Assembly: GCA_001303025.1 (NCBI GenBank)
Contig: LJNK01000014.1
Coordinates: 2,998 to 66,997 of the forward strand
From: Deltaproteobacteria bacterium SG8_13
Lineage (GTDB): Bacteria; Desulfobacterota; Desulfobacteria; Desulfobacterales; SG8-13
Length of the DNA stretch: 64,000 nt
Direction: 5' to 3'
In this document: positions 46,144 through 64,000 of the stretch, piece after piece
Layout: the number at the start of each line of letters is the position of its first letter
Numbering within the stretch: position 1 is the first letter of the stretch
Position numbers and translations under genes: made by a program
Notes under the pieces: model-generated
The model's database searches: none
What the model was told of the DNA's origin: nothing
What the model saw: the letters and a program-made list of their open reading frames with translations, nothing else

Positions 46144-47103
46144 TTAGTGAATACGGGACAAATCGGCAATCGATACGCTTGCCGGTTTGGAAAATCCCTT
46201 CTCCTTTAGCAGGTTTTTCATATACTCTTTTTCCTCGGGGATTTCCTCGAGATTGCGAATATACTCCAGAAAGTGCTCTTCGATCTGATGTTCCCGTGTG
46301 ATCTTTCCGGTCAAAAACGCCCATTGAAATGGAAAACGACCCGGGACGAAGTGAACGTTCAGCAAATGCCAGAATGATATCACCAGCAGCGCCATCACCG
46401 CTTCATCGGCGTGCATGAGCCTTGCGAGCTCCTGAAAAAAAGCCGGGAAGGATCCCGCGCTTTTACCGGCTGCCGGCAGCAACCGTGCCAATGTTTCGGG
46501 AAATATTTTGGCCATCAAATCGGGGAAAAGCAAGGCCGCTCCGGCGGTGATCAGCACGGTATTTCCCCAGATGATGGCCAGATAATGCAGCTTTTGTTTG
46601 TACATGAATTTTTCCATTTTCGGCCGATAAGGGGCCAGGCCGAAAAAATACTTCATGTCGTGAATCAGATCGAACAGATCTTTCGGCACGGGGATTTGCG
46701 TTCTTTTGTAATCGAACTGGTTTTTCAGCAGTTTTCGAGCGGTCCCGCCGACAATGGTAATGACATGGTACAGGCAGGTAAATATCATCAAAAATGCCGC
46801 TACCCGGTGAACGATTCGGGCCGTGTCGGCGCCGCCGAACATCGATATCAAGTGAGGGGCCCAGAACAGGTCGCTGTAATACAGCGGCAGCCCTGTGAGC
46901 ACCAATACCAAAAAAGTGACGACCACCAGAAAGTGCTGGATCACGATGTGCACAGAATACCTGGGCAGATCCCCCAAAGGGTCCGAGGTCACGTATTTGT
47001 AAATGTCCCTGGGGATGTTGCCCACACCTTCCACGTGGGTGTAGTATTCTTCAGCGTCCGCCCGCTGGTCCGGCACGGCCATTGCTTCCGATGGATTCGA
47101 CAT
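46144..47103 (-). CDS. Cytochrome b subunit (FdnI/CbcB-like), quinone-interacting membrane protein
   Basis: 4 TM segments with His in QHFL, VHRV and MHADEAVMALLVISFWHLL; KFMYKQKLHY loop. Confidence 0.85.
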   Translation of the reverse strand: MSNPSEAMAVPDQRADAEEYYTHVEGVGNIPRDIYKYVTSDPLGDLPRYSVHIVIQHFLVVVTFLVLVLTGLPLYYSDLFWAPHLISMFGGADTARIVHRVAAFLMIFTCLYHVITIVGGTARKLLKNQFDYKRTQIPVPKDLFDLIHDMKYFFGLAPYRPKMEKFMYKQKLHYLAIIWGNTVLITAGAALLFPDLMAKIFPETLARLLPAAGKSAGSFPAFFQELARLMHADEAVMALLVISFWHLLNVHFVPGRFPFQWAFLTGKITREHQIEEHFLEYIRNLEEIPEEKEYMKNLLKEKGFSKPASVSIADLSRIH

Positions 47104-47121
47104 GGTACATCTCCCGGGTAG

Positions 47122-48192: not shown

Positions 48193-48497
48193 TTTTCTTC
48201 TCCATGAAGTTTCGAAAAAGGGTGAGCCAAACAAACCGCACAACCAAAAACAAGGTGGCAAAACAATGAGCGAAAAACGGAGCCGGCGGCAAAGAACAGG
48301 TTTCGATGTGCAGGGTCAAACCGCCCCTCGGGCGCTGTGGGGTCATTGCCGGCAACTTATTCTACCCGGGAGTGCTCCTGTTGTTGCGCTACCACTTTGT
48401 GGTTTTCCTGTCAAGCAGCAGATTCTATCCAATCTGCTTTCGGACACACGGTTTTCGATTGACGATGGAAACGATACCCGGCGAACCGTGCGTGTTC

Positions 48498-49481
48498 TCA
48501 GAGCTGCCTCATCGGATGACACTTCAGGCACATGTTTCCGGTCAGCCGGTGACGGTGAGCCTCTCCGGCGCCGGCCGCCCCTGCCCGTTTGTCCGGGATT
48601 AATCCTTTTTGATGCGGGTTGTGGCAGGTCACGCACGTGACCCTGCCTTCCTGGTCGAGCGGCAAAACGATGTTGAACCGTATCTGCATCTGGGTGATCT
48701 GCGCCAGCACATCATCGGACGGTTTGCGCAGGTGTCTCTGATGCAGTGGCTGTTTGGCGGCGGTGTTGTGACATCCGATGCAAATCGCCCCGTAATTGCC
48801 GATGAGCTTCACATCCTCGGCCCCGGTCTTTTTCTCGTCTGGCACCTCCGAATGGCAGTACAAACATTTTTCTTTAACGATTTCCCCGTTTGCATTTAGT
48901 TGCTGATGGGGGTTGTACTTCGGGTACTTGTTTTTATCGTGGCATCGGAAGCAGATGTCGATTTGGTTGCCGTACGGCGCTCCCCGCAAAATTCCCTGCT
49001 TCAATATTTTGTCCGAGGGGCTGTCCTGGCACTGCTGAACGATATCGTGGCAGGTGATGCAGGTCATCTTTTTGTCTTGAAGCGGAAACCCGGTGGCGAT
49101 TTTTACATCGCCGGACGGCGGATAGTCAACCGGGTGCGGGTGCATTTTCCCGCTGTTATAATGACAGCTGCACAGGTATTGCGTGTTTCCGTCGTATTTC
49201 AAGTACGGTTCCGATTTTGCGATGGGCAGTTTTTCATGACACTCCAGGCAATATCTGCTGTCAAAGTGAATATTGGTCGTGTCGGGTATGCTGCGTTGAA
49301 CGATGACCGCTTCCTGTGAACCGGCTTGGGGGGCAGCGCCGACTTTTCGAGAAAATATGGAATCTTTCTGGTTGTACTGGCAACCGTAAACACCCCAGAT
49401 CAGCACCACGGGAGTCAACAGCGCGAGGCACCATTTGAACCGCGGCCGGTTATCGTTTTGCCGGGAAGTGAAAGTACTCAT
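48498..49481 (-). CDS. Lipoprotein multiheme cytochrome c, 7 CXXCH plus 1 CXCH
   Basis: Lipobox-like VYG-C; CLECH, CSCH, CITCH, CFRCH, CLYCH, CIGCH, CVTCH, CLKCH; start reassigned to MSTFTSRQ. Confidence 0.82.
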   Translation of the reverse strand: MSTFTSRQNDNRPRFKWCLALLTPVVLIWGVYGCQYNQKDSIFSRKVGAAPQAGSQEAVIVQRSIPDTTNIHFDSRYCLECHEKLPIAKSEPYLKYDGNTQYLCSCHYNSGKMHPHPVDYPPSGDVKIATGFPLQDKKMTCITCHDIVQQCQDSPSDKILKQGILRGAPYGNQIDICFRCHDKNKYPKYNPHQQLNANGEIVKEKCLYCHSEVPDEKKTGAEDVKLIGNYGAICIGCHNTAAKQPLHQRHLRKPSDDVLAQITQMQIRFNIVLPLDQEGRVTCVTCHNPHQKGLIPDKRAGAAGAGEAHRHRLTGNMCLKCHPMRQL

Positions 49482-51936
49482 ATTTGAATAATGCCTCCGG
49501 ACCGTGACAGTCCATGCAGATCGTGTTGTAACTCCTGTTTCGCAAAAAGCTGCTCGCGACGCTGCCAGCCGGCTTGACGGAGCCCCTGTTTTGCATTTCC
49601 CCCAAACTCCAGCGGTGCACATTATGACACGACGGGCAGGAAAGGGGGCCGTTGCCAACCTGTTTGCCGGATGCGGGGTCGAAAAGCGGAAAATAGATGC
49701 TTTCGTCTTTGATGTTTCGGCCGGTGTTGTGAATGGCGATGTCCTCCGGGTGGTAGCTGATCGCGGGAATCTTGCCCGGTGCGGATCCACGCTTGGAATG
49801 GCAACCGGTGCACATTTTTTCCATTATACTGCTTCCGGGCCCAAACCGCTGGCCCCATCGCAGCAGTTGGTTCTTGCTGTTGTGCGGCAGATGACAAACA
49901 CCGCACGGTCCTGACTCGACAGGAGTTTGGCCGGACGTGTTTTTCGCCTGCGGAGCAGCTGCAAGCAGGTTGTGATCGGTCGGCTCGATCAGGGCCTGGC
50001 TGCCGTGGCAGTCGCCGCAAAGTTGTGAGGACGGGGAAGCCGGCAGCCGCAGGAAGCTGCTGCGGGCATCTCCCTCTGTTTCGGTACCGGACATGGTTTT
50101 ACTATCGGCGGGCTGCCAGCGGTGTGGATCATGGCAGGTGTAACAGGACATTCGACCGTCCGCAGACGGGCGAACGGACGGGTCAAATACCGGCAGACGG
50201 GTCCTCATACCCATATCCCGCGGAGAAACCTGTAGCGGATGAGAATGGTCGTGAAGCTGCTTTTTGGTTGCCGGGCCGTCTTTGACATGACAACTGAAGC
50301 ACACCGGCCGCTGCTTGTTATCCTCGACCGGGGGCTGCTGTTTGGCCCACAGAAAAACCCGCCCGCCACCGTGCACCAGGTGACAGTTGTCGCACAGACC
50401 GGCTTCCGATGCTCTGCGGCCCAGCAAATTGGTTTCGGTCGGGGCACTGCGGCGCAGGTTGTGTCGGGTATCGGCGACAAGGAACTTGGCGTCGTGGCAT
50501 TGCCGGCAGATCTCCGGAGACGGTTTGCGTAAATACTGATTTTGGTTTTTGGTGCGGGGTCTTTCCCCGGTCGGTTCGGTGGCCGTATCCAGCGGAAGCC
50601 GGTGCGGATCGTGACAGGTGGCGCAGGTGATACCCCCGCCTTGGGATCGAACGCCAAAGGCAGTAAAAAGGGGAAGGATCATCTGATCCGGATCGGCCTG
50701 AGCCGATGTCAGCAGAAGTTCGTCGTCTTTTTTTTCGAAAGGATTGACGGCAAGGGGGTGGTTGTTTCCGAGCAGTTTCTCTCGGACCGCAAAAGTGCCT
50801 TCGCCGTGGCAGCTCATGCACATTTGGGTCGTGAAATCAGCGCTGCCGCTGTGTTCCCGGGCCGGTTTGTGTGGCAGGTGGCAGGCCGAACAGACGCCGG
50901 CTTCGGCAACGCTTTGTCCCTGGAGGTTTTTCGACTGCGGGGCCGATTTGTCCAGATTGTGTCCGGTCTCGGCCACTGTCTGCTTGTCGGCATGGCAGCT
51001 CAGACACAGGGTGGATTGGTTGTCATCGACCATCAGCAGCAAATGGCTGTCGGTTGGGCTGCCGTGTGTCTTGTGGCAGGTGGTGCAGATGATTTCGCCA
51101 CCTGCACCCGTGCGGGCCCCCTTTTCCATGAAAGATGCAGGAATCGAAGCGGTTGTCGGTCGGACGTTGACTACATGGCCGGGATTTCGTCGGCCGTCCG
51201 GGGTGATCAGCCCTTTATCATGGTGGCAGGCCAGGCAAAGACTCGAGTTTCGGGAGCTCTGGATCAGATAGGCTTCATGCGTCGATCCATGGGCCGTGTG
51301 ACAGGTCTCGCATGCGATGCGGCTCGGTTTCTGGCCGGCTGCCGTGCTCAATTCAAGCATGTTGTCCGGGATCCGGGTTTTCACGGGACCGACGGTGTGG
51401 TTGCGGGCCGATTTGCCGCCGTTTTTCCCGGGATGGCACATCCAGCACATGGCAGAGTCTTTGTTGGATATGCGCATGAAAATGGTGGTGTCTTCCCCGA
51501 CTCCGCTCGGAACGCCGTGGGCCGTGTGGCACGTGGCGCATTGCACCATGCCGTTGTCATCCAGCGGGAAGACGGCCGGGATGTTCATCCCTTCCGGCGG
51601 GCGGGTATTGGTCTTATGTCCGGCTCCGATCGTCATGCGTGCTCGGGAATCCATAACGCTTCCGTCATGACAGGAGATGCACATATCAGGGGTGGCGACC
51701 ACTTTTTCCGATTGATACGGCACCAGATCCGATCCTGTGCCTTCGACGAAAAAGGTGTCGACCCAGCGGTAGTGACAGATTGCGCAGCCCTTGGCCGATT
51801 TGGGGTTCTGGGGTGCAGCGGTGATCGCCCCGGCCTCAGACAGCGGCAAAAAGCCGATCGAAATGATCAGGAAAATCAGCGTTCGCATCGAATGCGGTTC
51901 GTTTCGTATGTTATGCCTGGTTGCCGGTGCGGTCAC
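49450..51936 (-). CDS. Multiheme cytochrome c, 20 CXXCH (paired-CXXCH type)
   Basis: Signal peptide (alternative start 51888); 20 CXXCH motifs counted, CAICH through CMDCH; paralog of 41845-44112. Confidence 0.93.
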   Translation of the reverse strand: MTAPATRHNIRNEPHSMRTLIFLIISIGFLPLSEAGAITAAPQNPKSAKGCAICHYRWVDTFFVEGTGSDLVPYQSEKVVATPDMCISCHDGSVMDSRARMTIGAGHKTNTRPPEGMNIPAVFPLDDNGMVQCATCHTAHGVPSGVGEDTTIFMRISNKDSAMCWMCHPGKNGGKSARNHTVGPVKTRIPDNMLELSTAAGQKPSRIACETCHTAHGSTHEAYLIQSSRNSSLCLACHHDKGLITPDGRRNPGHVVNVRPTTASIPASFMEKGARTGAGGEIICTTCHKTHGSPTDSHLLLMVDDNQSTLCLSCHADKQTVAETGHNLDKSAPQSKNLQGQSVAEAGVCSACHLPHKPAREHSGSADFTTQMCMSCHGEGTFAVREKLLGNNHPLAVNPFEKKDDELLLTSAQADPDQMILPLFTAFGVRSQGGGITCATCHDPHRLPLDTATEPTGERPRTKNQNQYLRKPSPEICRQCHDAKFLVADTRHNLRRSAPTETNLLGRRASEAGLCDNCHLVHGGGRVFLWAKQQPPVEDNKQRPVCFSCHVKDGPATKKQLHDHSHPLQVSPRDMGMRTRLPVFDPSVRPSADGRMSCYTCHDPHRWQPADSKTMSGTETEGDARSSFLRLPASPSSQLCGDCHGSQALIEPTDHNLLAAAPQAKNTSGQTPVESGPCGVCHLPHNSKNQLLRWGQRFGPGSSIMEKMCTGCHSKRGSAPGKIPAISYHPEDIAIHNTGRNIKDESIYFPLFDPASGKQVGNGPLSCPSCHNVHRWSLGEMQNRGSVKPAGSVASSFLRNRSYNTICMDCHGPEALFKYEYFHFPAKR

Positions 51937-51951
51937 GCGCGATTGTCACCA

Positions 51952-52953
51952 TCACTTCGATTCGCCGTTGATGCGGTAGACACTCACCTTGTTGGCGAGC
52001 ATCTCCACGACATATAATCGACGGTTGTGATCGATAAACAAACCGACCGGCGTTCTGAATTTTTTTACGGCACGATTCGAAGGCTCCCCCGCGACAGCGT
52101 GAAATTCGCCCATGGGGTTGAAAATCTGAATGACCCCCATATAGCTGTCGGATATGAAAACCCTGCCGGCTGGATCGATCGCAATCCCCTTGGGCCGGAA
52201 AAACTCTCCCGGTTCGACTCCCCAGTCGCCAATGGTGCCGGCGTATGTTCCTCCGGGTTTGAGCACCTGAACCCTCGTGTTGGTGACATCCACCACGTAG
52301 AGTCGTTTTTGTTTGTCCAGGGTGATCAGAAACGGATATTTGAATTCCAGTTTCGCGGTGCCCGGTTTCCCGTAGACGTCGATCAACTGTAGGTCCGACA
52401 GCCGATAGTCGAGAACGCGATGGTTGTCGTTATCGACCACGTAGCACCGGTTTCCGGCCTCATCCACAACCACGTCGGTCGGGTCCGCCGCGTGCTTGGC
52501 AGTGCCGGTGATGTTGATTTGGGCGATGAAATCACCGTCGGGTCCGAGGATTTGCACCCGATGATTTCCTGAATCGGCGATGAAGACCCTGCCGGAAGTG
52601 TCGATGTCGATTCCGAGCGGTTGACGAAATTCTCCGCTGCCGGAGCCCTCGCGGCCGAAAGAAGAGATGAACCCTCCGCTGTAGTTGAAAATTTTGATCT
52701 GGTTGTTGACACCGTCGACGACGTAAATGCGGTCGGTTGTCGATACCGCCACATCGCTGGGGGCATTGAACCGATAGGCAACATCAAACAGGTGATCGAC
52801 ATAGGTCAGACGGATTGCTTGCACCGGCGACGCGAACAACCAGAAGACGGCCAGCGCCGGAATGAGAAGGCTGCTAGCGCAAGATCGCCCGGGTTTGCCG
52901 CGGGGTTCTTTCCGGTGAAAAACCGCCTTATTGGTTTCTGAGCGGTGTTGCAT
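51952..52953 (-). CDS. NHL-repeat beta-propeller protein
   Basis: NHL units; hydrophobic signal; paralog of 44240-45232. Confidence 0.9.
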   Translation of the reverse strand: MQHRSETNKAVFHRKEPRGKPGRSCASSLLIPALAVFWLFASPVQAIRLTYVDHLFDVAYRFNAPSDVAVSTTDRIYVVDGVNNQIKIFNYSGGFISSFGREGSGSGEFRQPLGIDIDTSGRVFIADSGNHRVQILGPDGDFIAQINITGTAKHAADPTDVVVDEAGNRCYVVDNDNHRVLDYRLSDLQLIDVYGKPGTAKLEFKYPFLITLDKQKRLYVVDVTNTRVQVLKPGGTYAGTIGDWGVEPGEFFRPKGIAIDPAGRVFISDSYMGVIQIFNPMGEFHAVAGEPSNRAVKKFRTPVGLFIDHNRRLYVVEMLANKVSVYRINGESK

Positions 52954-52975
52954 CCGATCGGGTTACCCTTTCAGC

Positions 52976-53977
52976 TTAGTTTTCAAACAGCTTGGGAAAG
53001 TAAAACGTTTTGTATTTGGTCACCAATCCCTTGATGTTCAGATTGACAAGGTTGTTCGTTGTTTTTTCATCGAAGCCGAGTTTTTGAAAATCAAGGATGC
53101 TGCTGGCCGAATGGCATTCATCGCAGGCGACGCTGATCTCTTTTCTGTTGATGTTTCGGTGAAAGAATTCCAGGCGTTTTTCTTTTTCAGCCGGCATTAA
53201 GCTGGTTACCGACCGAACAAAGTCCTTCGCTTCGACGGAGTCCTGGGTGTTGACCAATGATTTTTTCTGTCCGCCGACCGGCAGAAAGACGGAGATCCTG
53301 GAGATAAAATGTTTTGATTTGCGGGCTTTTTTTAAATTGGGATTGTAGAAAGTGCCGTAAGGCTCACCGCTGAACTCGGCAATTTCGGCTCCATTCCAGT
53401 CAAAGTAGGCCCCCGGGAATTTGGCCTTGTTCAAATGGCAGACCTCGCAGACCATAAACCCGGTATGCAGGTTCAGCAGGCCGCGAACCATGTTGTTTTC
53501 ACTGTGGGGGTAGAGCTCATGACAGATCCTGCAGGAGGAGGGGTCCTGCAAAGTGGTGATCGCGGACTGTTCTTTGCGGTGAAACCGGCTCAACGGATGT
53601 TTGGCGACCAGGCGCTTTTCCTTGTCGGTAAGGTGGCATTCGGTGGTGCAGTCCACCTGCAGCTGCCCGGTGTGCGGAATCTTTTCGATGGTTGTATGGC
53701 ATTTCCGGCAGGCAAATTTTCCGTGTGACGATGCGGTGTACCTGGATTCATCGATGTGCAAAATGCTAAGCGTTTTGTCCTCTTTCACCGTGGCCAGCCC
53801 CGGATACTGGTGGCATGTCAAACATCCTTCCGGGTCCATGGCGAGGCTGCTGCCGGTAAAACCCAGCCATATCCAGACGGCGGCTGTCAGCAGGATCGGC
53901 ATGCAGTGGGGTTTCATCTCATCCACATCCATGGTCCGTATTTTCTTCTGAATGTCGTGCGTGGTGGGTTTTTTCAC
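52976..53977 (-). CDS. Periplasmic multiheme cytochrome c, 5 CXXCH plus 1 CX3CH
   Basis: Signal peptide; CLTCH, CRKCH, CTTECH, CRICH, CEVCH, CDECH. Confidence 0.87.
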   Translation of the reverse strand: MKKPTTHDIQKKIRTMDVDEMKPHCMPILLTAAVWIWLGFTGSSLAMDPEGCLTCHQYPGLATVKEDKTLSILHIDESRYTASSHGKFACRKCHTTIEKIPHTGQLQVDCTTECHLTDKEKRLVAKHPLSRFHRKEQSAITTLQDPSSCRICHELYPHSENNMVRGLLNLHTGFMVCEVCHLNKAKFPGAYFDWNGAEIAEFSGEPYGTFYNPNLKKARKSKHFISRISVFLPVGGQKKSLVNTQDSVEAKDFVRSVTSLMPAEKEKRLEFFHRNINRKEISVACDECHSASSILDFQKLGFDEKTTNNLVNLNIKGLVTKYKTFYFPKLFEN

Positions 53978-54031
53978 GCGATAGCTTCTCTTGCCTTTTT
54001 ATACCGGATTCAAGCCTCCATCCCCGGATAA

Positions 54032-54048
54032 GGCAAATACCATACCAG
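54032..54048 (-). promoter_or_regulatory. sigma54 -24/-12 promoter for the leftward cytochrome operon
   Basis: Minus strand CTGGTAT-GGTAT-TTGCC (GG-N10-GC), about 55 nt upstream of the GTG at 53977. Confidence 0.7.
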
Positions 54049-54331
54049 ATTTTGTTCCGCTTCTCTTTATGACGGCGCCCGCCACATTCTGCTCAAAAAC
54101 AGTCCCATTTTTGAGCCCACACCGGCCGGGAACCTGGGCCGCCCTTCGATCGGATGCGGGGCATACTGACCTCTGCCAACCGGCAAACCTGGTGAAATGC
54201 CCAACCGCTGGTGGGGATATCACCAGATAGATGTGGTCCTTTCGTCGGTTTTCCGTGCAGATCGCTGACAAATACTCTGGAAAGTGTACAGTGAACAAAG
54301 TGTTATCGTATGATTTTCTGCAAATTGCCAT

Positions 54332-54348
54332 TTGGCATATTCATTGCA
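54332..54348 (+). promoter_or_regulatory. sigma54 -24/-12 promoter for the rightward cytochrome operon
   Basis: TTGGCAT-ATTCA-TTGCA (GG-N10-GC), about 65 nt upstream of the TTG at 54414. Confidence 0.78.
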
Positions 54349-54413
54349 GAATGTATTACATCCTGTATGCACACGCTTCAAGTGTTTTTTGATTCCGTTC
54401 AAGGAGAAATCCA

Positions 54414-55580
54414 TTGCGGCTGAGCGCATTTATGATTGGCACAATTTTATTGGTCACGGCCTTTTGGCTGGTGGCGGGCTCCGGCACCGCCATGTCCGCC
54501 ACCGAGGCCCTGCCGGACACGGAAAACTGTTTGTTCTGCCACCGATACCCCGGCATGGGCCGGTTCGACGAATCCGGCGCCAAACGAATTTTTTATGTAA
54601 ACGACCAGCTCTTCGCCCGTTCGAACCACGGCAAACTCAAATGCACCAACTGTCACGTGGGATTGGACAAGATTCCGCACACCGACGTCAAGAAGGTCGA
54701 CTGCACCACCCAATGCCACCTGACCGAGCCCTCCACCGACCGAGAGTTTTCCCACAGCAACATGGTAAACAAATATATGGCGAGCGTGCACGGTGCGGGC
54801 GATGCCGACAATCCAAAACCTTTTCCAGAAGATTTGCCCACCTGCAAGTACTGTCACCAAAACAAGGTTCAGATGCCGATGGCAGGCTTGTGGGGAAAAA
54901 GCGAAGCGCTGGCCAATGAAACGCTGTCGCGCTGTGTCGGCTGCCACACCAAGCATCCGTGGGCCCAGAATTTTTACCTGCATTTTACCCATCGCATGCG
55001 GCGTGTCCGCAGCCAGCAGGAGATCGTCGCGCTTTGCACCAGCTGCCATGAAGACAGCGAAAAAATGGCCCGTCACGGCCTGGAAAGCATCGCGACGTTC
55101 AAGGACACTTTTCATTGGAACCTGGTCAAATACGGCGTCAAGGATGCTCCCGACTGTATCAGCTGCCACGTGCCGGTCGGCTACACGACCCACGATATCC
55201 GCCCGAAAACCGATCCGGCATCGTCCATCAACACCTTCAACCGGATCAGCACCTGCAGCAACCAGGGCGGTATCCAGTCCTGCCACCCCGGAGCGACGGC
55301 CGGCTTTGCCACCGGCCGGGTGCATGCGTACGGCACGAAAGTGCAGGTGGCCGCCGGCAAAACGAACGCCGTCGTTGAGGGTGTCGACAACACGCTGTTG
55401 ATCGAGCGGGCCGGCAAAGAAATGACCGAGGAGGAAATCTTCCGGCACACGGTGCTGTCCTACATTCGACTCTTCTACAAAGTGTTTATCCCCCTCGTTG
55501 TCGGATTTATGTTCTACCACCAGTGGATGGATTTTCTGGCAGCGCTGCGCAGAAGAAGAAAATCCCGAAAAGCGAAATGA
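54414..55580 (+). CDS. Multiheme cytochrome c with C-terminal anchor (CbcA-like), 6 CXXCH plus CX3CH and CX8CH
   Basis: AAGGAG RBS, TTG start, signal peptide; CLFCH, CTNCH, CTTQCH, CKYCH, CVGCH, CTSCH, CISCH, CSNQGGIQSCH; C-terminal TM. Confidence 0.87.
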   Translation: MRLSAFMIGTILLVTAFWLVAGSGTAMSATEALPDTENCLFCHRYPGMGRFDESGAKRIFYVNDQLFARSNHGKLKCTNCHVGLDKIPHTDVKKVDCTTQCHLTEPSTDREFSHSNMVNKYMASVHGAGDADNPKPFPEDLPTCKYCHQNKVQMPMAGLWGKSEALANETLSRCVGCHTKHPWAQNFYLHFTHRMRRVRSQQEIVALCTSCHEDSEKMARHGLESIATFKDTFHWNLVKYGVKDAPDCISCHVPVGYTTHDIRPKTDPASSINTFNRISTCSNQGGIQSCHPGATAGFATGRVHAYGTKVQVAAGKTNAVVEGVDNTLLIERAGKEMTEEEIFRHTVLSYIRLFYKVFIPLVVGFMFYHQWMDFLAALRRRRKSRKAK

Positions 55581-55596
55581 TTGGTTGCATGCAAAA

Positions 55597-56358
55597 ATGG
55601 AAGAAGCCGCCGTTGCAGAAAAAATAGACGAACCCCGCGAAGAAACCCTTCCCGCGGAGCAGCAGAAATTGCTGTTCGTGCGGTTGAACAAGCCTGAAAG
55701 ATGGCAGCATACGGTTTTCATGGGGTGTTTTATCGTGCTGGCTGTTACCGGATTTATGCTGAAGATTCCGGAAGACATTGTCCAAAAACTCGGAGGGTTT
55801 GGCGAAACCGTCTTTTTTATTCGAAGTCTTTTGCACCGAATTGCCGGCACCGTCATGATTCTCACCGCAATTTATCATCTGTTCTACCTCGTTTTCCATC
55901 CAGCCGGCCGCCGGTGGCTCTTCGATATGCTGCCGCGTCCCAAAGATCTCTTCGACCTGGTTCACAACATGCTCTATTTCATCAATGTGAAAAAAGAGCC
56001 CCCGGAATTTGACCGCTTCTCGTACAAGCACAAGATGGAATACGGCGCACTGATCCTTGGAACCACCCTGATGTCTGTAACCGGGCTGCTTTTGTGGAGC
56101 GAGTGGAGGTGGAGCAAATTTATTCTGGATATCTCCGCCCTGGTGCATGGGATGGAAGCTGTGCTGGCGTGCCTGGCCATCATCGTGTGGCACATGTACG
56201 ATATCCACTTCAAATTCCACAAATCACCTGTGGATGATGTGTGGATTACCGGAGTCATCGACGAAGAGGAGATGAAAGAGGAGCATTTGCTGCACTACAG
56301 AAAGATCATGGCAGATCCACGCCTGCAGGAGATCTACATTAAAAGAGAGAATCAATGA
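55597..56358 (+). CDS. Cytochrome b subunit (FdnI/CbcB-like)
   Basis: WQHTV, LHRIAG, VHGMEAVLACLAIIVWHMY; RFSYKHKMEY loop; paralog of 46144-47103. Confidence 0.85.
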   Translation: MEEAAVAEKIDEPREETLPAEQQKLLFVRLNKPERWQHTVFMGCFIVLAVTGFMLKIPEDIVQKLGGFGETVFFIRSLLHRIAGTVMILTAIYHLFYLVFHPAGRRWLFDMLPRPKDLFDLVHNMLYFINVKKEPPEFDRFSYKHKMEYGALILGTTLMSVTGLLLWSEWRWSKFILDISALVHGMEAVLACLAIIVWHMYDIHFKFHKSPVDDVWITGVIDEEEMKEEHLLHYRKIMADPRLQEIYIKRENQ

Positions 56359-57200
56359 AGAAAGACATCATCAAACGGGTTATCGGCAGATCGGGTCCGG
56401 GCGGGCAAAAGGATAGAAAACCGCCTTCGAAAACGGCGAAGCTGGTAATCAAAACAGCGTTCGTATTGCCGATCATTCTTTTTGCCCTGTGGCTGCTCAA
56501 GCTGGTCTACTTTCCCCATGCCGAAGCCCGCAAACATGAGTCGGTCGCCAAGCCAGCGGCAGAGCAGGGCATTTTTACGCAAATACTGCGTGACGACGGG
56601 CCGATTCCGAAAGAGCATTTTCATATCATAGACGAACACATTTCGCAGGCCGAACCCTACCACCCGATATGCCTGGAGTGTCACGGATCCTATCCCCACA
56701 GCAAGGAGAAAAAAGTTCGGGCCATCCTCAATTTTCACAACGGATTTCTCGCCTGCATGGTCTGTCATGTCCGCAAAAAACCTGACGATAAAAGTTTTTC
56801 TTTCGTGTGGGTCGACCGGCAGACCGGTGCGACTTCGATGAGAGTCGAGGGCGGATTCGGCAAGTATCCGGCCAAAATCTTTCCCATCAGGGAAACTGCC
56901 GGAAGACGCCTGGAGATCATCCACCCCGTCGATGAGAAGGCCGCCGCCGAGTTCATGAGGCTGAAAAATCAATTCTCCGCCGACCAGATGGCCAAAGCGA
57001 AGATCAAGCTGCATGAAAACATTTCCAAGAAACCGGTGTTCTGCAACGAATGCCACAAAAAAGACGGATATTTCGATTTTGCCAAACTCGGGTTTCCGGG
57101 CAACCGTGTCGATCATCTGACCTCGACGGAAATTACCGGTATGATCGAGAAATACGAAACCTTTTACATGCCGGAGACCATCGACTTTGGCTCCAAGTAA
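56355..57200 (+). CDS. Membrane-anchored triheme cytochrome c
   Basis: N-terminal TM; CLECH, CMVCH, CNECH; paralog of 45263-46093; ATGA overlap. Confidence 0.87.
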   Translation: MKKDIIKRVIGRSGPGGQKDRKPPSKTAKLVIKTAFVLPIILFALWLLKLVYFPHAEARKHESVAKPAAEQGIFTQILRDDGPIPKEHFHIIDEHISQAEPYHPICLECHGSYPHSKEKKVRAILNFHNGFLACMVCHVRKKPDDKSFSFVWVDRQTGATSMRVEGGFGKYPAKIFPIRETAGRRLEIIHPVDEKAAAEFMRLKNQFSADQMAKAKIKLHENISKKPVFCNECHKKDGYFDFAKLGFPGNRVDHLTSTEITGMIEKYETFYMPETIDFGSK

Positions 57201-57355: not shown

Positions 57356-59557
57356 ATGAAAAAGCGTATTGCCATCGTTCTAAGTGTCTGTATTTTGCTT
57401 TTTATTGCCGGCGGCATTTACATCGTCGTCACCATCAGTTCCAGCACCGCTAAGCTCGACCACCTCATTATGCTCCACCAGGTCGAAATCCTGAGAGAGC
57501 ATCTCCTGTTGCAGATTCGCAAGGTCCAATCCGATCTGATGCTCAAAGACAGTGCCTTTGCCAGCAGCGACGAAACGATTGCGGCCAACGTGCGCGCCAT
57601 GCAGATGATATCCACCACCTGCAAGGACTGTCACCACCGGCAGTCCGTGCAGAAACGGCTCGATGTGCTGATCAACGATGTCGCCGACTACAAGATGTCT
57701 CAACAGATGTTCATGGATTCCCGGAATCCGTCGAAACGCTCAGAACTTCAATCCGTAGCCTTCCGTAAAACCGAAAAACTGGAATCGATGGTCAACGGCA
57801 TGATCCACATTGCCAACAGCAAGCTCGCCGACAGCACCCAGGCATCGCTTGCCGATATCGCGCGATCAAAGACCATCCTGTACGTGCTGGTCGCCATCAC
57901 CCCGCTGATTGCCGGCGGGCTGGGTTTTTTTTTCATACGCGATCTGGCCAAACCGGTCGGTGTTCTGTTGAATGCCACCCGCCGGCTGAAAAGCGGTGAT
58001 CTGGACTATCGGGTAGAGGGGCTTTCCAAAGAGTTCGCTGAAGTGGCTACATCCTTTAACCAGATGTCCGAAGCACTGAAGCAACAATTGCTGCAGCTGC
58101 AGGAGAGCGAAAAGCGCTACCGGATGCTGTTCGAAAGTGCCGGGGATGCGATCTTCATCCTCGAGGCAGAAGGTGCGAATCGGGGCAGGATCGTGGCTGC
58201 CAACCGGGCTGCCGCAACCATGCACGGGTACACCGTGGAAGAAATGCTGAAGATGTCGATTCAGGACCTGGATGCCCCTGCCGCTGCCGAACAGGCCTCT
58301 AGAAGAATTCAGCAGATCCTTTCCGGAAAATGGATTACGGCCGAGATCGAACACATCCGACGGGACGGATCGGTTTTTCCGGTTGAAATCAGTGCGGGCC
58401 TGCTGGAACTGGAAGGCCGGAAGTATGTCCTGGCTTTTGACCGAGACATCACCGAGCGCAAGCAGATGGAGGACATGCTCCGACAGACCAAGCAGGAATG
58501 GGAAGACACCTTTGACACCATTACCGACATGATCTCCATCCACGATCGAGAATTTAACATCGTCAGGGCCAACAAGGCCGCCCAAGAGATTCTCGGCTTG
58601 CCCCTGCTGGACCACACCCGGGCCAAGTGCTACGAATACTATCACGGTAAAAACGCTCCGCCGGAGGGCTGTATCAGCTGCGAGTGTTTCAGAACCGGAG
58701 AGCCGGCCTCCTTCGAGGTGTTCGAGCCGCATCTGGACCGGCTGTTCGAGGTCCGGGCCATGCCGCGTTTCGACTCCGACCGCCGCCTGACTGCCGTGAT
58801 CCATGTGCTGCGGGACATCACCGAACGCAAACGGATCGAAGAGACGCTCCAGCGGGCCGAACAGATGAAGCTGGTCGGCGAGTGGGCCACTGCCCTGGCC
58901 CATGAAATCAAAAATCCGCTGGCCGGCATCAAGGTGTCGGTGGAAGTGCTGTCCGAGGAGCTGGAGCTGAAGGAAGACAAACAAGTGGTGAAACGGGCGG
59001 TGGAAGAAATCAAGCGAATCGAGAATCTGCTCAAGAGCCTGCTCAACTTTGCCAAACCGCCCAAACCACAGTTGAGCCAGACCGATCTAAACGACCTGCT
59101 GGACAAAACCGCGGCCTTTTCCCTAAAACAGCCGACCGTGTCAAAAAATACAGAGGGTATCATCCACATCGTCAAGGAATTCACGCCCGGCTTGCCCCAC
59201 ATTCTAGCGGACCCGATGCAGCTGCAGCAAATCTTTCTCAACCTGCTGCTTAACAGCATCGAGGCCATGCCCGACGGCGGCACCTTGCTGCTAAAAACCG
59301 ATCTCGATCCGGCCGCCAAGGCCGCCCGGATCGAGATCGCCGACACCGGCAAGGGGATCGAACTGCAGGTGCAGGAGAAGATTTTCGAACCGTTCTTCAC
59401 CACCAAAAAGAAAGGCAGCGGACTGGGGCTGGCGGTTACCAAGCGCTTGATCGAACAGCACAGGGGCGACATTCACCTGACCAGCGAACCCGGCAAGGGG
59501 ACGGTGTTTACCATCACCTTTCCCATTGAAGTCGACAGGGAGGAACAGGCCGCATGA
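57356..59557 (+). CDS. Sensor histidine kinase: periplasmic CXXCH domain, HAMP, two PAS, HisKA, HATPase
   Basis: Two TM segments flank CKDCH; HAMP (PVGVLLNATRRLKSGDL); PAS/PAC; H-box AHEIKNPL; N/G1/F/G2 boxes. Confidence 0.93.
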   Translation: MKKRIAIVLSVCILLFIAGGIYIVVTISSSTAKLDHLIMLHQVEILREHLLLQIRKVQSDLMLKDSAFASSDETIAANVRAMQMISTTCKDCHHRQSVQKRLDVLINDVADYKMSQQMFMDSRNPSKRSELQSVAFRKTEKLESMVNGMIHIANSKLADSTQASLADIARSKTILYVLVAITPLIAGGLGFFFIRDLAKPVGVLLNATRRLKSGDLDYRVEGLSKEFAEVATSFNQMSEALKQQLLQLQESEKRYRMLFESAGDAIFILEAEGANRGRIVAANRAAATMHGYTVEEMLKMSIQDLDAPAAAEQASRRIQQILSGKWITAEIEHIRRDGSVFPVEISAGLLELEGRKYVLAFDRDITERKQMEDMLRQTKQEWEDTFDTITDMISIHDREFNIVRANKAAQEILGLPLLDHTRAKCYEYYHGKNAPPEGCISCECFRTGEPASFEVFEPHLDRLFEVRAMPRFDSDRRLTAVIHVLRDITERKRIEETLQRAEQMKLVGEWATALAHEIKNPLAGIKVSVEVLSEELELKEDKQVVKRAVEEIKRIENLLKSLLNFAKPPKPQLSQTDLNDLLDKTAAFSLKQPTVSKNTEGIIHIVKEFTPGLPHILADPMQLQQIFLNLLLNSIEAMPDGGTLLLKTDLDPAAKAARIEIADTGKGIELQVQEKIFEPFFTTKKKGSGLGLAVTKRLIEQHRGDIHLTSEPGKGTVFTITFPIEVDREEQAA

Positions 59558-60948
59558 AAGAGATGCGCAAGGTGTTCTTGCTCGACGACGACGACCTGAT
59601 TATCTCCATGCTCAGCAGGGCCTTGCAAAAGGCCGGTTTCGAGGTTCAGACGGAAACCGAATCCGGCGGTGCATTGCAGAAAATCAGATCCTTCAGCCCG
59701 GATGTCGTTATGCTCGACATCAAGATGCCGAAACCCGATGGAATGGACATCTTACGGGAAATTCAGGATCTACGGATCGATACCCAGGTCGTGATGCTGA
59801 CCTCCGACGACACCGCCGAAACAGCGGTCAAGGCGATGAAACTCGGTGCGGCCGATTACCTCACCAAGCCGTTTCACACCGATGAGGTCAAGATCGTCAT
59901 CAACAACGTGATCGAAAAAGAGCGCCTGAAGCAGGAGGTGCGCTTTCTGCGCAAGGCCTACTCCGATTTTGTCGAAAAGGACATCATCGGCAGCTCCGGA
60001 GCCATTGAGAGCCTGTTGGAGAAGGTGGATCGCATCGCCAAGGCCCGGGTCAACAACATCCTGATTACCGGGGAGAGCGGAACGGGCAAGGAAGTCGTGG
60101 CCCGGCACATTCACAACCTGATGTTCGAGCAGAGCGGCAGCGGGCATGCGCCGTTTATCTCCGTCAACTGTGCAGCAATGCCCGAATCACTGTTGGAAAG
60201 TGAGTTGTTCGGTTACATCAAGGGCTCTTTTACCGATGCGAAGTCCGACAAGAAAGGCCTGTTCGAACTGGCCTCCGGCGGTTCGATCCTGCTGGACGAG
60301 ATCGGTGAGATGAAAATGGATTTGCAGAGCAAACTGCTGCGGGTGCTGGAAGATCGAACCATCCGAAGAATCGGTGGAAAAAGCGAGATGCCCATCGATG
60401 CCACGGTGATTGCCACCACCAACAAAAACCTTTCCGATGCGGTGAGCAATGGAGAGTTTCGTAAAGACCTGTTTTTCCGCCTCAGCACGTTTTACCTGCA
60501 TATCGTCCCCCTGCGGGAGCGAAGGGAGGACATTGCGCCGCTGGCCGATCACTTCCTGAAAATTTTTACGACCAAATACAACAACCGTTGTATTAAGGGC
60601 TTTACCCCGGAGGCCGGGCGGGTGCTCCGGTCCGCCAGCTGGCCCGGGAATGTGCGCGAGTTGAAAAACCTGATCGAACGGATCGTTGTGCTGGAAAACA
60701 CGGAAATGATCGGTCCCGAACACATACCCGGCTGGATCACCGGTGGGACCATGTACAACGGACCCAAACCCAGCAACGGGTTTCAGCTTCCGGATTCGGG
60801 CATCGACTTGGAAAACCTGGAGAAAAACCTGATTCAGCAGGCCCTGAAAAAGGCGGAAAACAACAAGGCCCTTGCCGCCAAGCTGCTGAACATCAGCTAC
60901 GACAGCCTTCGCTACCAGGTAAAAAAATTCGGCCTGGAAGGCGGTTAA
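59554..60948 (+). CDS. sigma54-dependent response regulator (NtrC family)
   Basis: Receiver (LLDDDD, MLDIKMP, KPF); AAA+ (GESGTGKE, ESELFG-GSFTDA, LDEIGE, WPGNVREL); Fis-type HTH. Confidence 0.95.
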   Translation: MKEMRKVFLLDDDDLIISMLSRALQKAGFEVQTETESGGALQKIRSFSPDVVMLDIKMPKPDGMDILREIQDLRIDTQVVMLTSDDTAETAVKAMKLGAADYLTKPFHTDEVKIVINNVIEKERLKQEVRFLRKAYSDFVEKDIIGSSGAIESLLEKVDRIAKARVNNILITGESGTGKEVVARHIHNLMFEQSGSGHAPFISVNCAAMPESLLESELFGYIKGSFTDAKSDKKGLFELASGGSILLDEIGEMKMDLQSKLLRVLEDRTIRRIGGKSEMPIDATVIATTNKNLSDAVSNGEFRKDLFFRLSTFYLHIVPLRERREDIAPLADHFLKIFTTKYNNRCIKGFTPEAGRVLRSASWPGNVRELKNLIERIVVLENTEMIGPEHIPGWITGGTMYNGPKPSNGFQLPDSGIDLENLEKNLIQQALKKAENNKALAAKLLNISYDSLRYQVKKFGLEGG

Positions 60949-60984: not shown

Positions 60985-62118
60985 TTATCGTTCCAGGGTG
61001 GCCACCGCCCCGTTTACCATGGCCGCGGCCAGGCCATGGGCCGTGCGGATGGTCCCCCAGTCGAAAACAACCACCCCGTCGTCTCCGTCCCGGCAACTGC
61101 TGGCAGCCCATGCGGACTCTCGGGTCTGATGCTCGATAAGCGATGCCGAGAAACAGACTTTGGCCGGTCCTCCGGCTCCCTGGTAATCCTCGTAGTCGAA
61201 TACCCGCCCTGAGAGAATCAGATCGACGTTCATACGGCTGAACAATGCGGTGGCATCGGCCAGCGACAGACCGTCTTGCATCACGATTCGGAAATTCAGC
61301 AGTGTCTGCCGCACCTGGCCCGGTTCCACGGGCTGCATATTGGCAAGCCCCTTCAGCGCGGCCGTGAAATGGTGCGTCATCATCTGCCCGGCGTGCCTGC
61401 GAGTGCTCAGATTCAAAAAGGGCAGCACCACAACGCTGTAAGTTCTGTTCGGCAGCAGCAGACGGCTGTTGAACACGATTTGGGGTTCGAAGGTACGCCG
61501 GGTTTCCGCCGCTGTCGCATGTTGACCGGACAGATGGCCCACCAGTGATGTCGTCAGTTGAAATATCGCGCGGCGCAGCAGTATGTCGGGGTCTTCCACC
61601 AGGGAGAGTTCCAGGAAACCGGGTGCATCGTCACCGGCTGCACCCACCCCGTCCATCCACAGAATCCGCGGCCGGTCTCCGGCGGTCACCAGCCTTGCAG
61701 AAAGGGCAATTTTTGGAGGGGGCTGGCCATTGTAATATTCCAGTGCGGTGAACAGGACCGCATCTGCACCGATCTCCTCTTTGAGCAGCCGGGCCGTTTC
61801 GTTGTCCATTCCGCCGGTATAGCGAAGGCGGTGCCGGACGATAAAGCCCTCGATTTGATCATCTGGAACGACGCTCACCGCGCTTTTTTCCAGGTGAAAT
61901 ACGATTTCGCTGCGGATGCCGATCAGCGGAGCCGCGATACCGCTCAGATTGTCGATGGGCATGACGGCAATGACCGGCGAATCCTGAACTTTCTCAACGG
62001 TGGTCGCAGGGCCGCTGGTCGAACACCCGGCTATGCAGAGAAGCAGGCAGCATCCCGCCAGCGTGATTTTAGTAAAGGAGTTTGTTGATGAGATCATTGA
62101 CTGCTGCCTGGGTGACAT
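60985..62118 (-). CDS. Lipoprotein with two tandem PelC/CsgG-like (GNA1162/DUF799-like) domains
   Basis: Lipobox IAG-C; AVMPIDNLS...ILWMD and VVLPFLNLS...SAWAA repeats. Confidence 0.7.
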   Translation of the reverse strand: MSPRQQSMISSTNSFTKITLAGCCLLLCIAGCSTSGPATTVEKVQDSPVIAVMPIDNLSGIAAPLIGIRSEIVFHLEKSAVSVVPDDQIEGFIVRHRLRYTGGMDNETARLLKEEIGADAVLFTALEYYNGQPPPKIALSARLVTAGDRPRILWMDGVGAAGDDAPGFLELSLVEDPDILLRRAIFQLTTSLVGHLSGQHATAAETRRTFEPQIVFNSRLLLPNRTYSVVVLPFLNLSTRRHAGQMMTHHFTAALKGLANMQPVEPGQVRQTLLNFRIVMQDGLSLADATALFSRMNVDLILSGRVFDYEDYQGAGGPAKVCFSASLIEHQTRESAWAASSCRDGDDGVVVFDWGTIRTAHGLAAAMVNGAVATLER

Positions 62119-62659
62119 CGTTCATGGGCCTCCCGCCGCCTCCGAGCAGACGGTCTGCCATAGAGATCCCACCGCGCGTGGCGGATGCCGTCCACACCAC
62201 CCGCTGGGTGCTGGATTCAAACATCTGCAATCCAACGGAAACGACGTTGGCGGACGTGGCCCCGGAACGGACTTCGCCGTATTCTCGAACGACACCGGTA
62301 ATCAGGGCGTCGGCCTGGACGATGGCGGCGATTTTGGTGACGTCGTCCTTCGAGGGCGATGACGGATTGGTAATGCCGGCCCTGGCGATGCCCCGGGCAA
62401 CCTCTCCGGGGGGCACCACGTACAATGCGCCGGTTGACATGAGGCTGTTGATAAAGGTGTCGCGCACGCGGTCGGCGGCCTGTTGATCCCGCGAAAGATT
62501 GGCAAGCGGCATCACGGCAATGCTGCGCAGGGCCGAAAAATCGATGTCGGGGTCGTGAAAGCTCTCGGGTACGGACTTCGCGCCGCAGCCCGTCAGCAGC
62601 AAAGCCGCTGCCATCCAAATACAGCATATCCATCGCATGAGGGGAGACGTTGGGTTCAT
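62069..62659 (-). CDS. PelC/GNA1162-like lipoprotein
   Basis: Lipobox LTG-C; AVMPLANLS, LITGVVREY, RVVWTAS; start reassigned to ATG 62659. Confidence 0.75.
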   Translation of the reverse strand: MNPTSPLMRWICCIWMAAALLLTGCGAKSVPESFHDPDIDFSALRSIAVMPLANLSRDQQAADRVRDTFINSLMSTGALYVVPPGEVARGIARAGITNPSSPSKDDVTKIAAIVQADALITGVVREYGEVRSGATSANVVSVGLQMFESSTQRVVWTASATRGGISMADRLLGGGGRPMNDVTQAAVNDLINKLLY

Positions 62660-62787
62660 CCGAAGTTCCTTTACGCTGTCAGCGCCGGTCATCCCGGAGC
62701 AGGTTTGTTTTCCGGTCTTCCTATTTTTATCCCAATCCGCACCCGGGGTCAACACCAACGGAAACCTCATACGGCAGGTTTCGCCGT

Positions 62788-64000
62788 TCACCAGGTAAAG
62801 ATCAGTTCCGAGCGAAAGGTGCGCGAGTCAATATTCTGCAGCGGATCCTCCGAGTCTGTCAATGTGTACTGGGACTCCAACAGCAGATGGCGACTGATGT
62901 TCCAGGCCAGAAACGGTCCATAGTTGCGGTCCCGGCGACCTTCCTCCAGCCGCAGAATTTCAGCGTACGTGAGAGAAAACTGGATCGCACCGTCCGGAAA
63001 CGGCGACCAGCTTACCGAGTAGTTCTGCACGGTGGTGGTTTCATCATCCCGATCCCGGATCGTGACCTTGCCGAACAAAGACAGGGCCGGGTAGGGAGTG
63101 AAGAACATCTGGAGGTTGTAGGCGTTGTCGGTGTAATCTCCTCCCTGGTCTTCGAGGTTTTCCACCAGCCGCAGCGTCGCATCCAGGTTGAATGTAAGGG
63201 TTCGGTGCGGTACCAGGTTGGTTCCGAGTCGGACGGTCGCCGTGTCCTGCCGGCCGATCGCCAAAAGGTCTTCCCGGCTGTAGCCGAGATCCAGATATGC
63301 GCTCCAGTCGCGGTACAAAATGGCGTTGCTGCGCAAAAAAACCGAATCGGTGGTGCCGGTGCCTTCGTCGAGTTCCGTGCGTGTGCCGCTGAAGGTCAGG
63401 ATTTGATTGAAAGTTCTCAGATAGTCGGCCCGCAATGATAAACCGTAGGTGTAGTCGATTACCGTATCATCGTTTACCGTTGTGTCCGTGCGCAGCAGGC
63501 GGGCGTTGGTGGAAAAAACCGGGTTGAAGATGTGGCGCAAAAACAGCCCGTTGGCGAGCTCGGACCGCTCGTCGGTAACGGCCGAAAAGGCAAATTCCTG
63601 TTTCCGGGTCCGCCAGTTGAGATCGTACCCGGTCGACGTTCGCGGCGAGATGCGACCGGTGAGGGTGAGGTTGACATTATGATCGACCGTTTCCTGCTCG
63701 GCGGTGACGGGCAGCCCCGATAGGGTCAGGAAGGGCTCCATTTCGGTGACGAAGATGTTGGGAAAGCTGGCTGCGCCGGGAACGAGCGGCGATAGAGGGC
63801 GTACAACCACCTTGAGGTAGCGGGTCGTCACCGTCGGGAAGGTGATGTCGAATCGGAATTCGAAGGTGTCGAACAGGGCCGGGAACACGGTGGCCACCTG
63901 GGTCCAGGTGCTGGTGTCGAGATTGTCGGGACTGGTGTACACCGCCCAGGAGAACGAATTGGACACTGCGGCGGTCAGTCTTTGATCGACCCACACCCGT
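62788..64000 (-). CDS. Outer-membrane beta-barrel protein with an inserted discoidin-like domain (5'-truncated)
   Basis: About 300 aa of alternating amphipathic beta-strands ending in RSELIFTW (aromatic C-terminus), preceded by a ...TRYLKVVV... segment; frame open at the window edge. Confidence 0.72.
   Translation of the reverse strand, partial: RVWVDQRLTAAVSNSFSWAVYTSPDNLDTSTWTQVATVFPALFDTFEFRFDITFPTVTTRYLKVVVRPLSPLVPGAASFPNIFVTEMEPFLTLSGLPVTAEQETVDHNVNLTLTGRISPRTSTGYDLNWRTRKQEFAFSAVTDERSELANGLFLRHIFNPVFSTNARLLRTDTTVNDDTVIDYTYGLSLRADYLRTFNQILTFSGTRTELDEGTGTTDSVFLRSNAILYRDWSAYLDLGYSREDLLAIGRQDTATVRLGTNLVPHRTLTFNLDATLRLVENLEDQGGDYTDNAYNLQMFFTPYPALSLFGKVTIRDRDDETTTVQNYSVSWSPFPDGAIQFSLTYAEILRLEEGRRDRNYGPFLAWNISRHLLLESQYTLTDSEDPLQNIDSRTFRSELIFTW

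Follow-up and report, generated by a model that had tools for sequence, protein, structure and literature searches.

A candidate heme c-binding histidine kinase with a predicted four-helix-bundle sensor domain, encoded within a multiheme cytochrome island of Deltaproteobacteria bacterium SG8_13

We describe a sensor histidine kinase encoded in a 64,000-nucleotide stretch of DNA from Deltaproteobacteria bacterium SG8_13 (GenBank assembly GCA_001303025.1, contig LJNK01000014.1, positions 2,998 to 66,997 of the forward strand), referred to below as 'the window'. The periplasmic domain of this kinase carries the heme c attachment motif CXXCH, and its gene stands between a Cbc-like cytochrome module and the gene for a sigma-54-dependent response regulator. 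We think it probable that the protein is a heme-c sensor kinase, responsive to redox state or perhaps to a gas, and that it controls the Cbc-like module and the surrounding island of multiheme cytochromes through its sigma-54 partner. With somewhat less than even confidence, we propose further that the kinase represents an undescribed class of periplasmic sensor: a bundle of the Tar/NarX type that gained heme c independently, in convergence with the Cache_heme domains. In the clade to which the window kinase belongs, the heme alone would then read the periplasmic redox potential and, via the sigma-54 activator and a palindromic enhancer, would set expression of a ~15-kb island (69 CXXCH motifs) that includes a quinol-oxidizing Cbc-like module.

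The kinase is ordered as a first transmembrane segment (TM1), a periplasmic four-helix bundle containing the motif in the form CxxCHH, a second transmembrane segment (TM2), HAMP, PAS, PAS_4, HisKA and HATPase_c. Pfam places HAMP at amino acids (aa) 192-243, PAS at 254-367, PAS_4 at 386-493, and the two domains that mark a HisKA-type kinase at 508-567 (HisKA, E 5e-14) and 619-725 (HATPase_c, E 3e-27); the phospho-accepting histidine, H516, falls within the H-box HEIKNPL. Residues 1-190 match nothing in Pfam, and NCBIfam matches cover the transmitter half only. Kyte-Doolittle hydropathy reveals two hydrophobic segments and no others, aa 5-27 and 174-195. Since the N-terminus reads MKKR and HAMP follows TM2, the loop between the segments (aa 28-173) must face the periplasm. 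CKDCH occupies aa 89-93 of this loop (bases 57620-57634) and is followed at once by His94; from the protein's own composition, the chance of one CXXCH occurring there is ~3e-4. An earlier note on this DNA, made from the letters alone, had placed CKDCH in a short periplasmic region between two transmembrane helices. Hydropathy and the position of HAMP confirm that topology; 'short' was mistaken, the loop being a domain of 146 aa, predicted to form a four-helix bundle.

Conservation of CXXCH in orthologs, which the same note had put forward as a check, proved complete. A word-indexed search restricted to aa 1-200 gathered 120 close homologs at 43-88% identity, and CxxCH is present at the aligned position in all of them (120/120). 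Distant relatives were sought by an exhaustive phmmer search with aa 28-175 against 1.84 billion cluster representatives (E<=0.001, one per 50%-identity cluster). This returned 202 proteins; 149 among the 150 matches listed were new sequences, and CXXCH occurs in every listed distant representative of at least 120 aa (145/145), down to 24% identity. Across 120 aligned representatives, each at least 200 aa long, C89, C92, H93 and H94 are the sole fully invariant positions of the domain (120/120). Also strongly conserved are R47 (97%), H41 (90%), Q58, Y112 and M149 (70%), and H41, H49 and M149 are all invariant in the window kinase and its close subfamily. As read from these alignments, the family signature is CxxCHH plus a conserved box on the first helix of the bundle, alpha1 (LHQVEILRE). 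The segment of the domain with the highest conservation lies on alpha1, as does the P-box of NarX.

The domain always sits at aa ~29-176, and HAMP comes next in each of 76 distant representatives (76/76). What lies beyond varies: among these 76, ~60 have HisKA/HATPase outputs, 13 are REC hybrids, 7 have GGDEF, 5 EAL, and 2 are direct fusions to a sigma-54 AAA+ module, and such varied outputs behind one domain are the behaviour expected of a modular sensor. Proteins in which the CxxCHH bundle is fused to GGDEF/EAL include P0170 and P0204; the two with a direct junction to a sigma-54 AAA+/HTH module would be enhancer-binding proteins of the one-component type, bound to the membrane. The family amounts to ~200 sequence clusters (E<=0.001, 50%-identity clusters) from Desulfobacterota, Nitrospirota, Acidobacteriota and other anaerobes; its sequences belong to uncultured Desulfobacterota, Nitrospirota, Acidobacteriota, Deferrimicrobiaceae, Anaeromyxobacteraceae and Chloroflexota. 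The source genome contains a single copy of the sensor domain, with no paralogs.

The sensor domain has no significant Pfam match even at E<=10, and a profile search of PDB sequences with it gave nothing meaningful. Its fold was modelled with AlphaFold2 from a 25-sequence alignment of kinase aa 1-200. The model (mean predicted local distance difference test score, pLDDT, 88.3) consists of helices at 2-63, 72-90, 96-121 and 125-198, packed up and down into a four-helix bundle; TM1 is continuous with the first of them and TM2 with the last, and the heme motif lies at the C-terminal end of alpha2. Foldseek's best match in the PDB is the sensor of the Adeh_2942 kinase (4k0d; template-modelling score 0.79, root-mean-square deviation 2.5 Å), and its other matches, NarQ, Tsr, PcaY and KinB, are four-helix-bundle sensor domains too. 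At the level of prediction, then, the domain is of the four-helix-bundle type represented by Tar, NarX and Adeh_2942. Judging from helix lengths and heptad phase, H41, E44, R47, C89-H94 and M149 would lie at about the same height. That height appears to be the end of the shorter alpha2-alpha3 hairpin, beyond which the stalk formed by alpha1 and alpha4 would reach the membrane alone.

To act on a CXXCH motif, cytochrome c maturation systems need little beyond its periplasmic location. The source genome, a 3.8-Mb metagenome-assembled genome (MAG) that is 91% complete, encodes a Cytochrom_C_asm protein (PF01578, 143.8 bits). Among 301 sampled genomes of the same phylum, 20 carry the sensor domain, the source genome included, and cytochrome c maturation genes are present in all of the other carriers (19/19). 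The earlier note's suggestion that cytochrome c maturation could attach a heme is supported by these proteins, which are encoded here and in each of the 19 other carriers and which attachment at the candidate site would require.

The regulator gene lies directly downstream, and the kinase stop and regulator start overlap as ATGA at 59554-59557. Pfam identifies Sigma54_activat (E 6e-63), Response_reg and HTH_8 in the product, and by domain content the two proteins form an NtrC-class sigma-54 two-component pair. Two full-length rpoN genes, of 474 and 480 aa, occur in the source genome, on contigs C56 and C121. The pairing is common: in 85 loci compared (80 from named genomes and 5 from contig look-ups), an ortholog of the sigma-54 regulator directly follows the kinase in 67. 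Upstream of the kinase stands a module of three genes on the same strand, for a multiheme cytochrome c, a cytochrome b and a 3-CXXCH cytochrome c. It combines a cytochrome b of the FdnI/PhsC type (Ni_hydr_CYTB) with a C-terminally anchored multiheme cytochrome c, and has a sigma-54 regulator nearby, the features of a CbcBA-like module. Homologs of the cytochrome b are ~250 aa long, cover 78-92% of the open reading frame (ORF) and align from about residue 34; the ORF has probably been called too long, with the true start at the ATG at 55597, which would end the overlap with the preceding gene. A 3-CXXCH cytochrome gene is likewise found directly upstream of the kinase in three relatives (L004, L006 and L007). 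The gap of 155 bp between this cytochrome gene and the kinase contains no terminator-like site, which makes autoregulation plausible.

Between the Cbc-like operon and a divergent operon on the minus strand is a 436-bp gap, and this gap holds sigma-54 elements and palindromes (Table 1). The plus-strand element, TGGCATATTCATTGC, recurs as an identical or near-identical 15-mer before multiheme cytochrome genes in seven homolog loci (L003, L004, L010, L017, L027, L029 and L032), and the near-identical elements of relatives precede cytochromes with 5-8 CXXCH, NHL-like proteins or a 42-aa membrane protein. For the palindromes, the consensus TGGTGA-WW-TCACCA has 34 matches in 1.1 Mb of homolog loci, compared with 1-6 in shuffles. 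In 27 of the 34 cases a sigma-54 element that precedes a multiheme cytochrome or NHL-like protein follows 85-221 bp downstream, and many of these palindromes occur as pairs 22 bp apart. The combined arrangement is present in the window and in 17 other loci (15 when duplicate fetches of one contig are set aside), and it recurs beside orthologous kinases in other phyla. Four palindrome matches occur in the whole 3.8-Mb source genome, and the window site is the only one flanked by sigma-54 elements. Such co-occurrence suggests that the regulator binds the tandem palindrome. The earlier note had the kinase following a Cbc-like module, overlapping an NtrC activator and feeding back on cytochrome expression. 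Both gene relationships are borne out, the activator being complete (REC, sigma-54 AAA+ and HTH_8), and the feedback gains support at the level of sequence from the two sigma-54 promoters, the shared palindromes and the retention of the arrangement beside orthologs.

Table 1. Features of the kinase, its regulator and the adjoining cytochrome genes (window coordinates)
Feature	Position	Strand	Basis or remarks
Divergent operon	49450..53977	-	5-CXXCH cytochrome 52976-53977; NHL beta-propeller 51952-52953; 20-CXXCH cytochrome 49450-51936
Sigma-54 promoter-like element TGGTATGGTATTTGC	54033..54047	-	56 bp before 5-CXXCH cytochrome start at 53977; GG/GC spacing correct
Tandem palindromic enhancer-like sites TGGTGAAATGCCCA and TGGGGATATCACCA, 22 bp apart	54190..54225	.	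Divergent intergenic region
Sigma-54 promoter-like element TGGCATATTCATTGC	54333..54347	+	67 bp upstream of CbcA-like gene start
CbcA-like multiheme cytochrome c, 6 CXXCH plus one C-X3-4-CH, C-terminal membrane anchor	54414..55580	+	
CbcB-like membrane cytochrome b (Ni_hydr_CYTB)	55498..56358	+	Pfam
N-anchored cytochrome c, 3 CXXCH, 281 aa, directly upstream of kinase	56355..57200	+	
Sensor histidine kinase gene, 733 aa	57356..59557	+	ORF, translation, Pfam domains
TM1, aa 5-27, after cytoplasmic MKKR	57368..57436	+	Hydropathy; one continuous helix into alpha1 in the AlphaFold2 model
Periplasmic sensor domain, aa 28-173	57437..57874	+	Predicted up-down four-helix bundle; no Pfam/NCBIfam model
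Candidate heme c site CKDCHH, aa 89-94	57620..57637	+	C-terminal end of alpha2 and alpha2-alpha3 turn
TM2, aa 174-195	57875..57940	+	Hydropathy; HAMP next
PAS_4, aa 386-493, cytoplasmic	58511..58834	+	Pfam; conserved Cys/His cluster
NtrC-type response regulator, 464 aa: REC (D54), sigma-54 AAA+, HTH_8	59554..60948	+	Pfam/NCBIfam

The cytochrome genes extend well beyond those next to the kinase. The region 41845-57200 is made up of a pair of paralogous modules; a giant cytochrome (18 or 20 CXXCH), a small cytochrome, a multiheme cytochrome, a cytochrome b and an NHL propeller occur in each, and the 69 CXXCH motifs are distributed over nine cytochrome genes between 41.8 and 57.2 kb. The divergent operon probably continues into the second of these modules, down to 41845, and a single 12-kb operon, transcribed from the minus-strand sigma-54 promoter, may take in all the minus-strand genes between 53977 and 41845. 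On the other side, three minus-strand genes (60985-63996) converge on the regulator gene. They encode a 377-aa protein, a GNA1162-like lipoprotein and a 402-aa protein; the 377-aa and 402-aa proteins have no family match. The trio keeps its synteny with the kinase in 9-13 homolog loci and may represent an outer-membrane assembly linked to the cytochromes. In several Nitrospirota relatives (L001, at 11670-11798; L012, L013 and L019), a conserved 42-aa protein with a single transmembrane segment (MKNSKTKGSFKS...VATYVA) is encoded after the regulator on the opposite strand. It has a sigma-54 promoter of its own, accompanied in L001 and L012 by the palindrome, and has no counterpart in the window. 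Within the kinase itself, the second cytoplasmic PAS domain contains a cluster of cysteines and a histidine, C425-x4-H430-x8-C439-x2-C442-x-C444 (aa 425-444; 58628-58687). C425, H430, C439, C442 and C444 are kept in 97, 92, 97, 91 and 71, respectively, of 98 full-length homologs, and the cluster resembles a metal or iron-sulfur site, possibly a second, cytoplasmic redox input.

A mechanism can be proposed that connects these elements. The kinase would be a dimeric membrane protein whose Tar/NarQ-type bundle gained CxxCHH as a site for covalent heme c, at the end of the alpha2-alpha3 hairpin nearer the membrane. Heme c would be attached to C89 and C92, at the base of the bundle between the stalk helices alpha1 and alpha4, with His93 as proximal ligand and the core-facing His41 and/or Met149, at the same height by helix register, as candidate distal ligands. 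Electron exchange with the periplasmic cytochrome pool would determine whether the iron is oxidized or reduced; a diatomic ligand is a less likely trigger. A change in the state of the iron would shift the packing of alpha1 and alpha4, and the shift would travel via TM2, HAMP and the PAS domains to the kinase core, which would phosphorylate the translationally coupled NtrC-type activator. Acting from the tandem TGGTGA-N2-TCACCA sites, the activator would then drive two back-to-back sigma-54 promoters, one serving the CbcA/CbcB-like operon (probably with the kinase and regulator genes included) and the other the divergent multiheme-cytochrome/NHL operon.

Several observations weigh against this scheme. 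The sigma-54 contact loop of the regulator (aa 224-229) reads GSFTDA where GAFTGA is canonical; the minus-strand element, TGGTATGGTATTTGC, departs from the sigma-54 consensus at two positions; and the palindrome is assigned to this regulator by co-occurrence only. All members found for the family are metagenome-derived: Bacterium BMS3Abin06 alone, among records titled with an organism, is not labelled as a MAG, and the untitled records are metagenome or read-assembly contigs. The position of M149 is occupied by Ile or Leu in ~26% of representatives, and both H41 and M149 are missing in ~5/120, which makes axial ligation uncertain. Finally, a gene for a PhnD-like binding protein (PF12974-type) abuts the kinase in 59 of the 79 loci that have enough upstream sequence (~75%), and so common a neighbour hints that the ancestral input was a chemical ligand rather than redox. 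Reading of the cytochrome pool, as envisaged in the earlier note, is one of several possible inputs, given that the wider family is usually paired with a PhnD-like protein.

The substitution of M149 bears on the first alternative, that heme c is present and that the kinase senses a small ligand, e.g. nitric oxide (NO), carbon monoxide (CO), O2 or sulfide, much as cytochrome c' or the Cache_heme receptors do, with the kinase switched by binding at a distal site that is open or labile. Ile or Leu at this position resembles the hydrophobic distal pocket of cytochromes c', the helix-CXXCH segment gives a weak local match to PF01322 (E 0.12-0.19), and NO is bound by Cache_heme domains of the same topology (PMC12889525). 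Against this, the PF01322 match falls short of significance, the invariance of H41, H49 and M149 in the close subfamily favours a six-coordinate heme, and the presumed target genes encode electron-transfer cytochromes rather than detoxification functions. We regard a gas sensor as a serious but unlikely explanation.

The binding protein bears on the second, according to which the heme is secondary and the primary input is a chemical ligand. Ancestrally this ligand would have been delivered by the PhnD-like protein, as in AioX/AioS/AioR; here it would bind the bundle directly, or a new partner (e.g. the upstream 3-CXXCH cytochrome) would signal instead. The frequent PhnD-like neighbour speaks for this, and AioXSR is built alike, from a binding protein, a kinase and a sigma-54 regulator (PMC5908839, PMC7565993). 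Moreover, where the binding protein is missing, its place immediately upstream of the kinase is taken in 8 of 17 loci by a cytochrome gene on the same strand. The window, and the 91%-complete source genome as a whole, contain no such protein, yet the sensor domain keeps every invariant residue. In a tree built on the sensor-HAMP region, the window kinase falls in a Desulfobacterota clade of 14 (SH-like approximate likelihood-ratio test, SH-aLRT, 99). Its basal members, L010 and L016, still have the binding protein, and within the clade is a subclade of 10 (support 92), nine of whose loci lack it and one of which has too little upstream sequence. As judged from this tree and gene order, the window member is a derived, two-component version, located inside a cytochrome operon, whose clade lost the binding protein. 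That argues that the heme bundle can sense alone, and the coherence of the subclade across several genera indicates that the domain evidently senses without the protein. A primary chemical input seems to us distinctly unlikely in this member.

It is more doubtful that the pair is merely adjacent to the cytochrome genes and has its targets elsewhere, and we consider this improbable. The 155-bp gap and a weak sigma-70-like site before the kinase gene would accommodate such independence, as would the Nitrospirota relatives, in which the nearest sigma-54 target is the 42-aa membrane protein and not a cytochrome. Set against these are the position of the genome's sole palindrome-plus-sigma-54 composite, which adjoins the pair, the way this composite travels with orthologous pairs across phyla, and the lack of a terminator between the cytochrome genes and the kinase. 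That CxxCHH is a periplasmic metal site or thiol-disulfide switch (Cys2His2-like) instead of a heme site is very improbable: the invariant second histidine, H94, is unusual for c-type cytochromes and four-helix-bundle sensors are normally cofactor-free (PMC3831638), but the two-residue spacing and the histidine after the second cysteine are exact in 265/265 sequences, every carrier genome tested has cytochrome c maturation genes, and the family is found in cytochrome-rich anaerobes and beside cytochrome genes.

The sensor family is apparently undescribed, in that we found no Pfam or NCBIfam model, solved structure or paper for it. No paper was found on a four-helix-bundle heme-c sensor or on CXXCHH, and coverage of the literature was incomplete, so this is weak evidence of novelty. 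Signal-transduction proteins known to carry c-type heme are very few (PMC8396549), and those that have been characterized possess PAS-like or Cache folds (PMC12889525, PMC8396549). A second, structurally unrelated family of heme-c sensors would mean that periplasmic heme sensing arose more than once. If the reading of the window kinase as a heme-c redox sensor is true, the protein becomes a candidate 'redox-potential sensor', of the kind on which electron-exporting bacteria are believed to rely in choosing among inner-membrane cytochromes. It would offer a handle on the means by which metal reducers, syntrophs and sulfate reducers perceive redox conditions beyond the cytoplasm and tune the cytochromes with which they export electrons. 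As an experimental system the locus is also compact, comprising a single kinase, a single regulator, one enhancer and a pair of promoters.

Parts of this system resemble known ones. AtoS/AtoC and ZraS/ZraR share the NtrC-class transmitter half (PAS, HisKA and HATPase_c) and the regulator. They are the best NCBIfam matches, and orthology with either was rejected as the scores fall far under the equivalog cut-offs (295 vs 646; 418 vs 714); these matches exclude the sensor domain of the window kinase. AioX/AioS/AioR resembles the wider family in the order PhnD-like binding protein, two-TM kinase, sigma-54 activator (PMC5908839, PMC7565993). The window member differs in having no binding protein and in its presumed targets, which are cytochromes and not arsenite oxidase. 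We know of no heme motif in AioS.

Geobacter sulfurreducens offers a functional precedent: as the redox potential falls, its operon for a bc-type cytochrome, cbcBA, is induced by BccR, a sigma-54 regulator (bioRxiv 10.1101/2021.04.15.440034). There, too, a sigma-54 regulator adjoins an operon for a membrane cytochrome b and a C-terminally anchored multiheme cytochrome c, and a signal transducer with heme c motifs, GSU0599, is encoded nearby (PMC8396549, PMC3831638). The window module is likened to GSU0593/GSU0594 (cbcBA) by domain type and arrangement. BccR differs in being divergently transcribed, and its kinase is not defined in that paper (bioRxiv 10.1101/2021.04.15.440034); GSU0599 differs in having two heme motifs, and is grouped with the PAS-like/Cache type.

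In fold, the sensor domain is most like those of Adeh_2942 (PDB 4k0d), NarX/NarQ and Tar/Tsr, with which it shares, by prediction, the topology TM1-alpha1...alpha4-TM2. Those bundles are cofactor-free and bind small ligands at the dimer interface (PMC3831638). None has CXXCH, and their sequence similarity to the window domain is undetectable. Class II cytochromes c (cytochromes c', PF01322) are also four-helix bundles, with heme c on a CXXCH at the C-terminal end of a helix. Cytochrome c' binds NO and CO. It differs in being soluble and in bearing the motif on the last helix, whereas in the window kinase, a membrane receptor, the motif is on alpha2. Membership of PF01322 was rejected, the match reaching 13-14 bits against a cut-off of 26.5 over 24 residues around the motif, and the likeness is an analogy only. 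The Cache_heme (sCache_heme) domains (PF11845, DUF3365/Tll0287-like; e.g. GSU0582 and GSU0935), proposed sensors of redox or NO (PMC12889525, PMC8396549), correspond in more respects: a periplasmic domain between two transmembrane segments, a single conserved CXXCH, HAMP next, and modular outputs (kinase, GGDEF/EAL). The window domain is not a member of that family, having no PF11845 match even at E<=10 and an all-helical model rather than an alpha/beta one. In Cache_heme, the fold is the alpha/beta Cache fold and the motif lies on an inserted helix, whereas the window domain is all-alpha in the model, has the signature CxxCHH and shows no sequence similarity. Here a different sensor fold would have acquired heme c independently.

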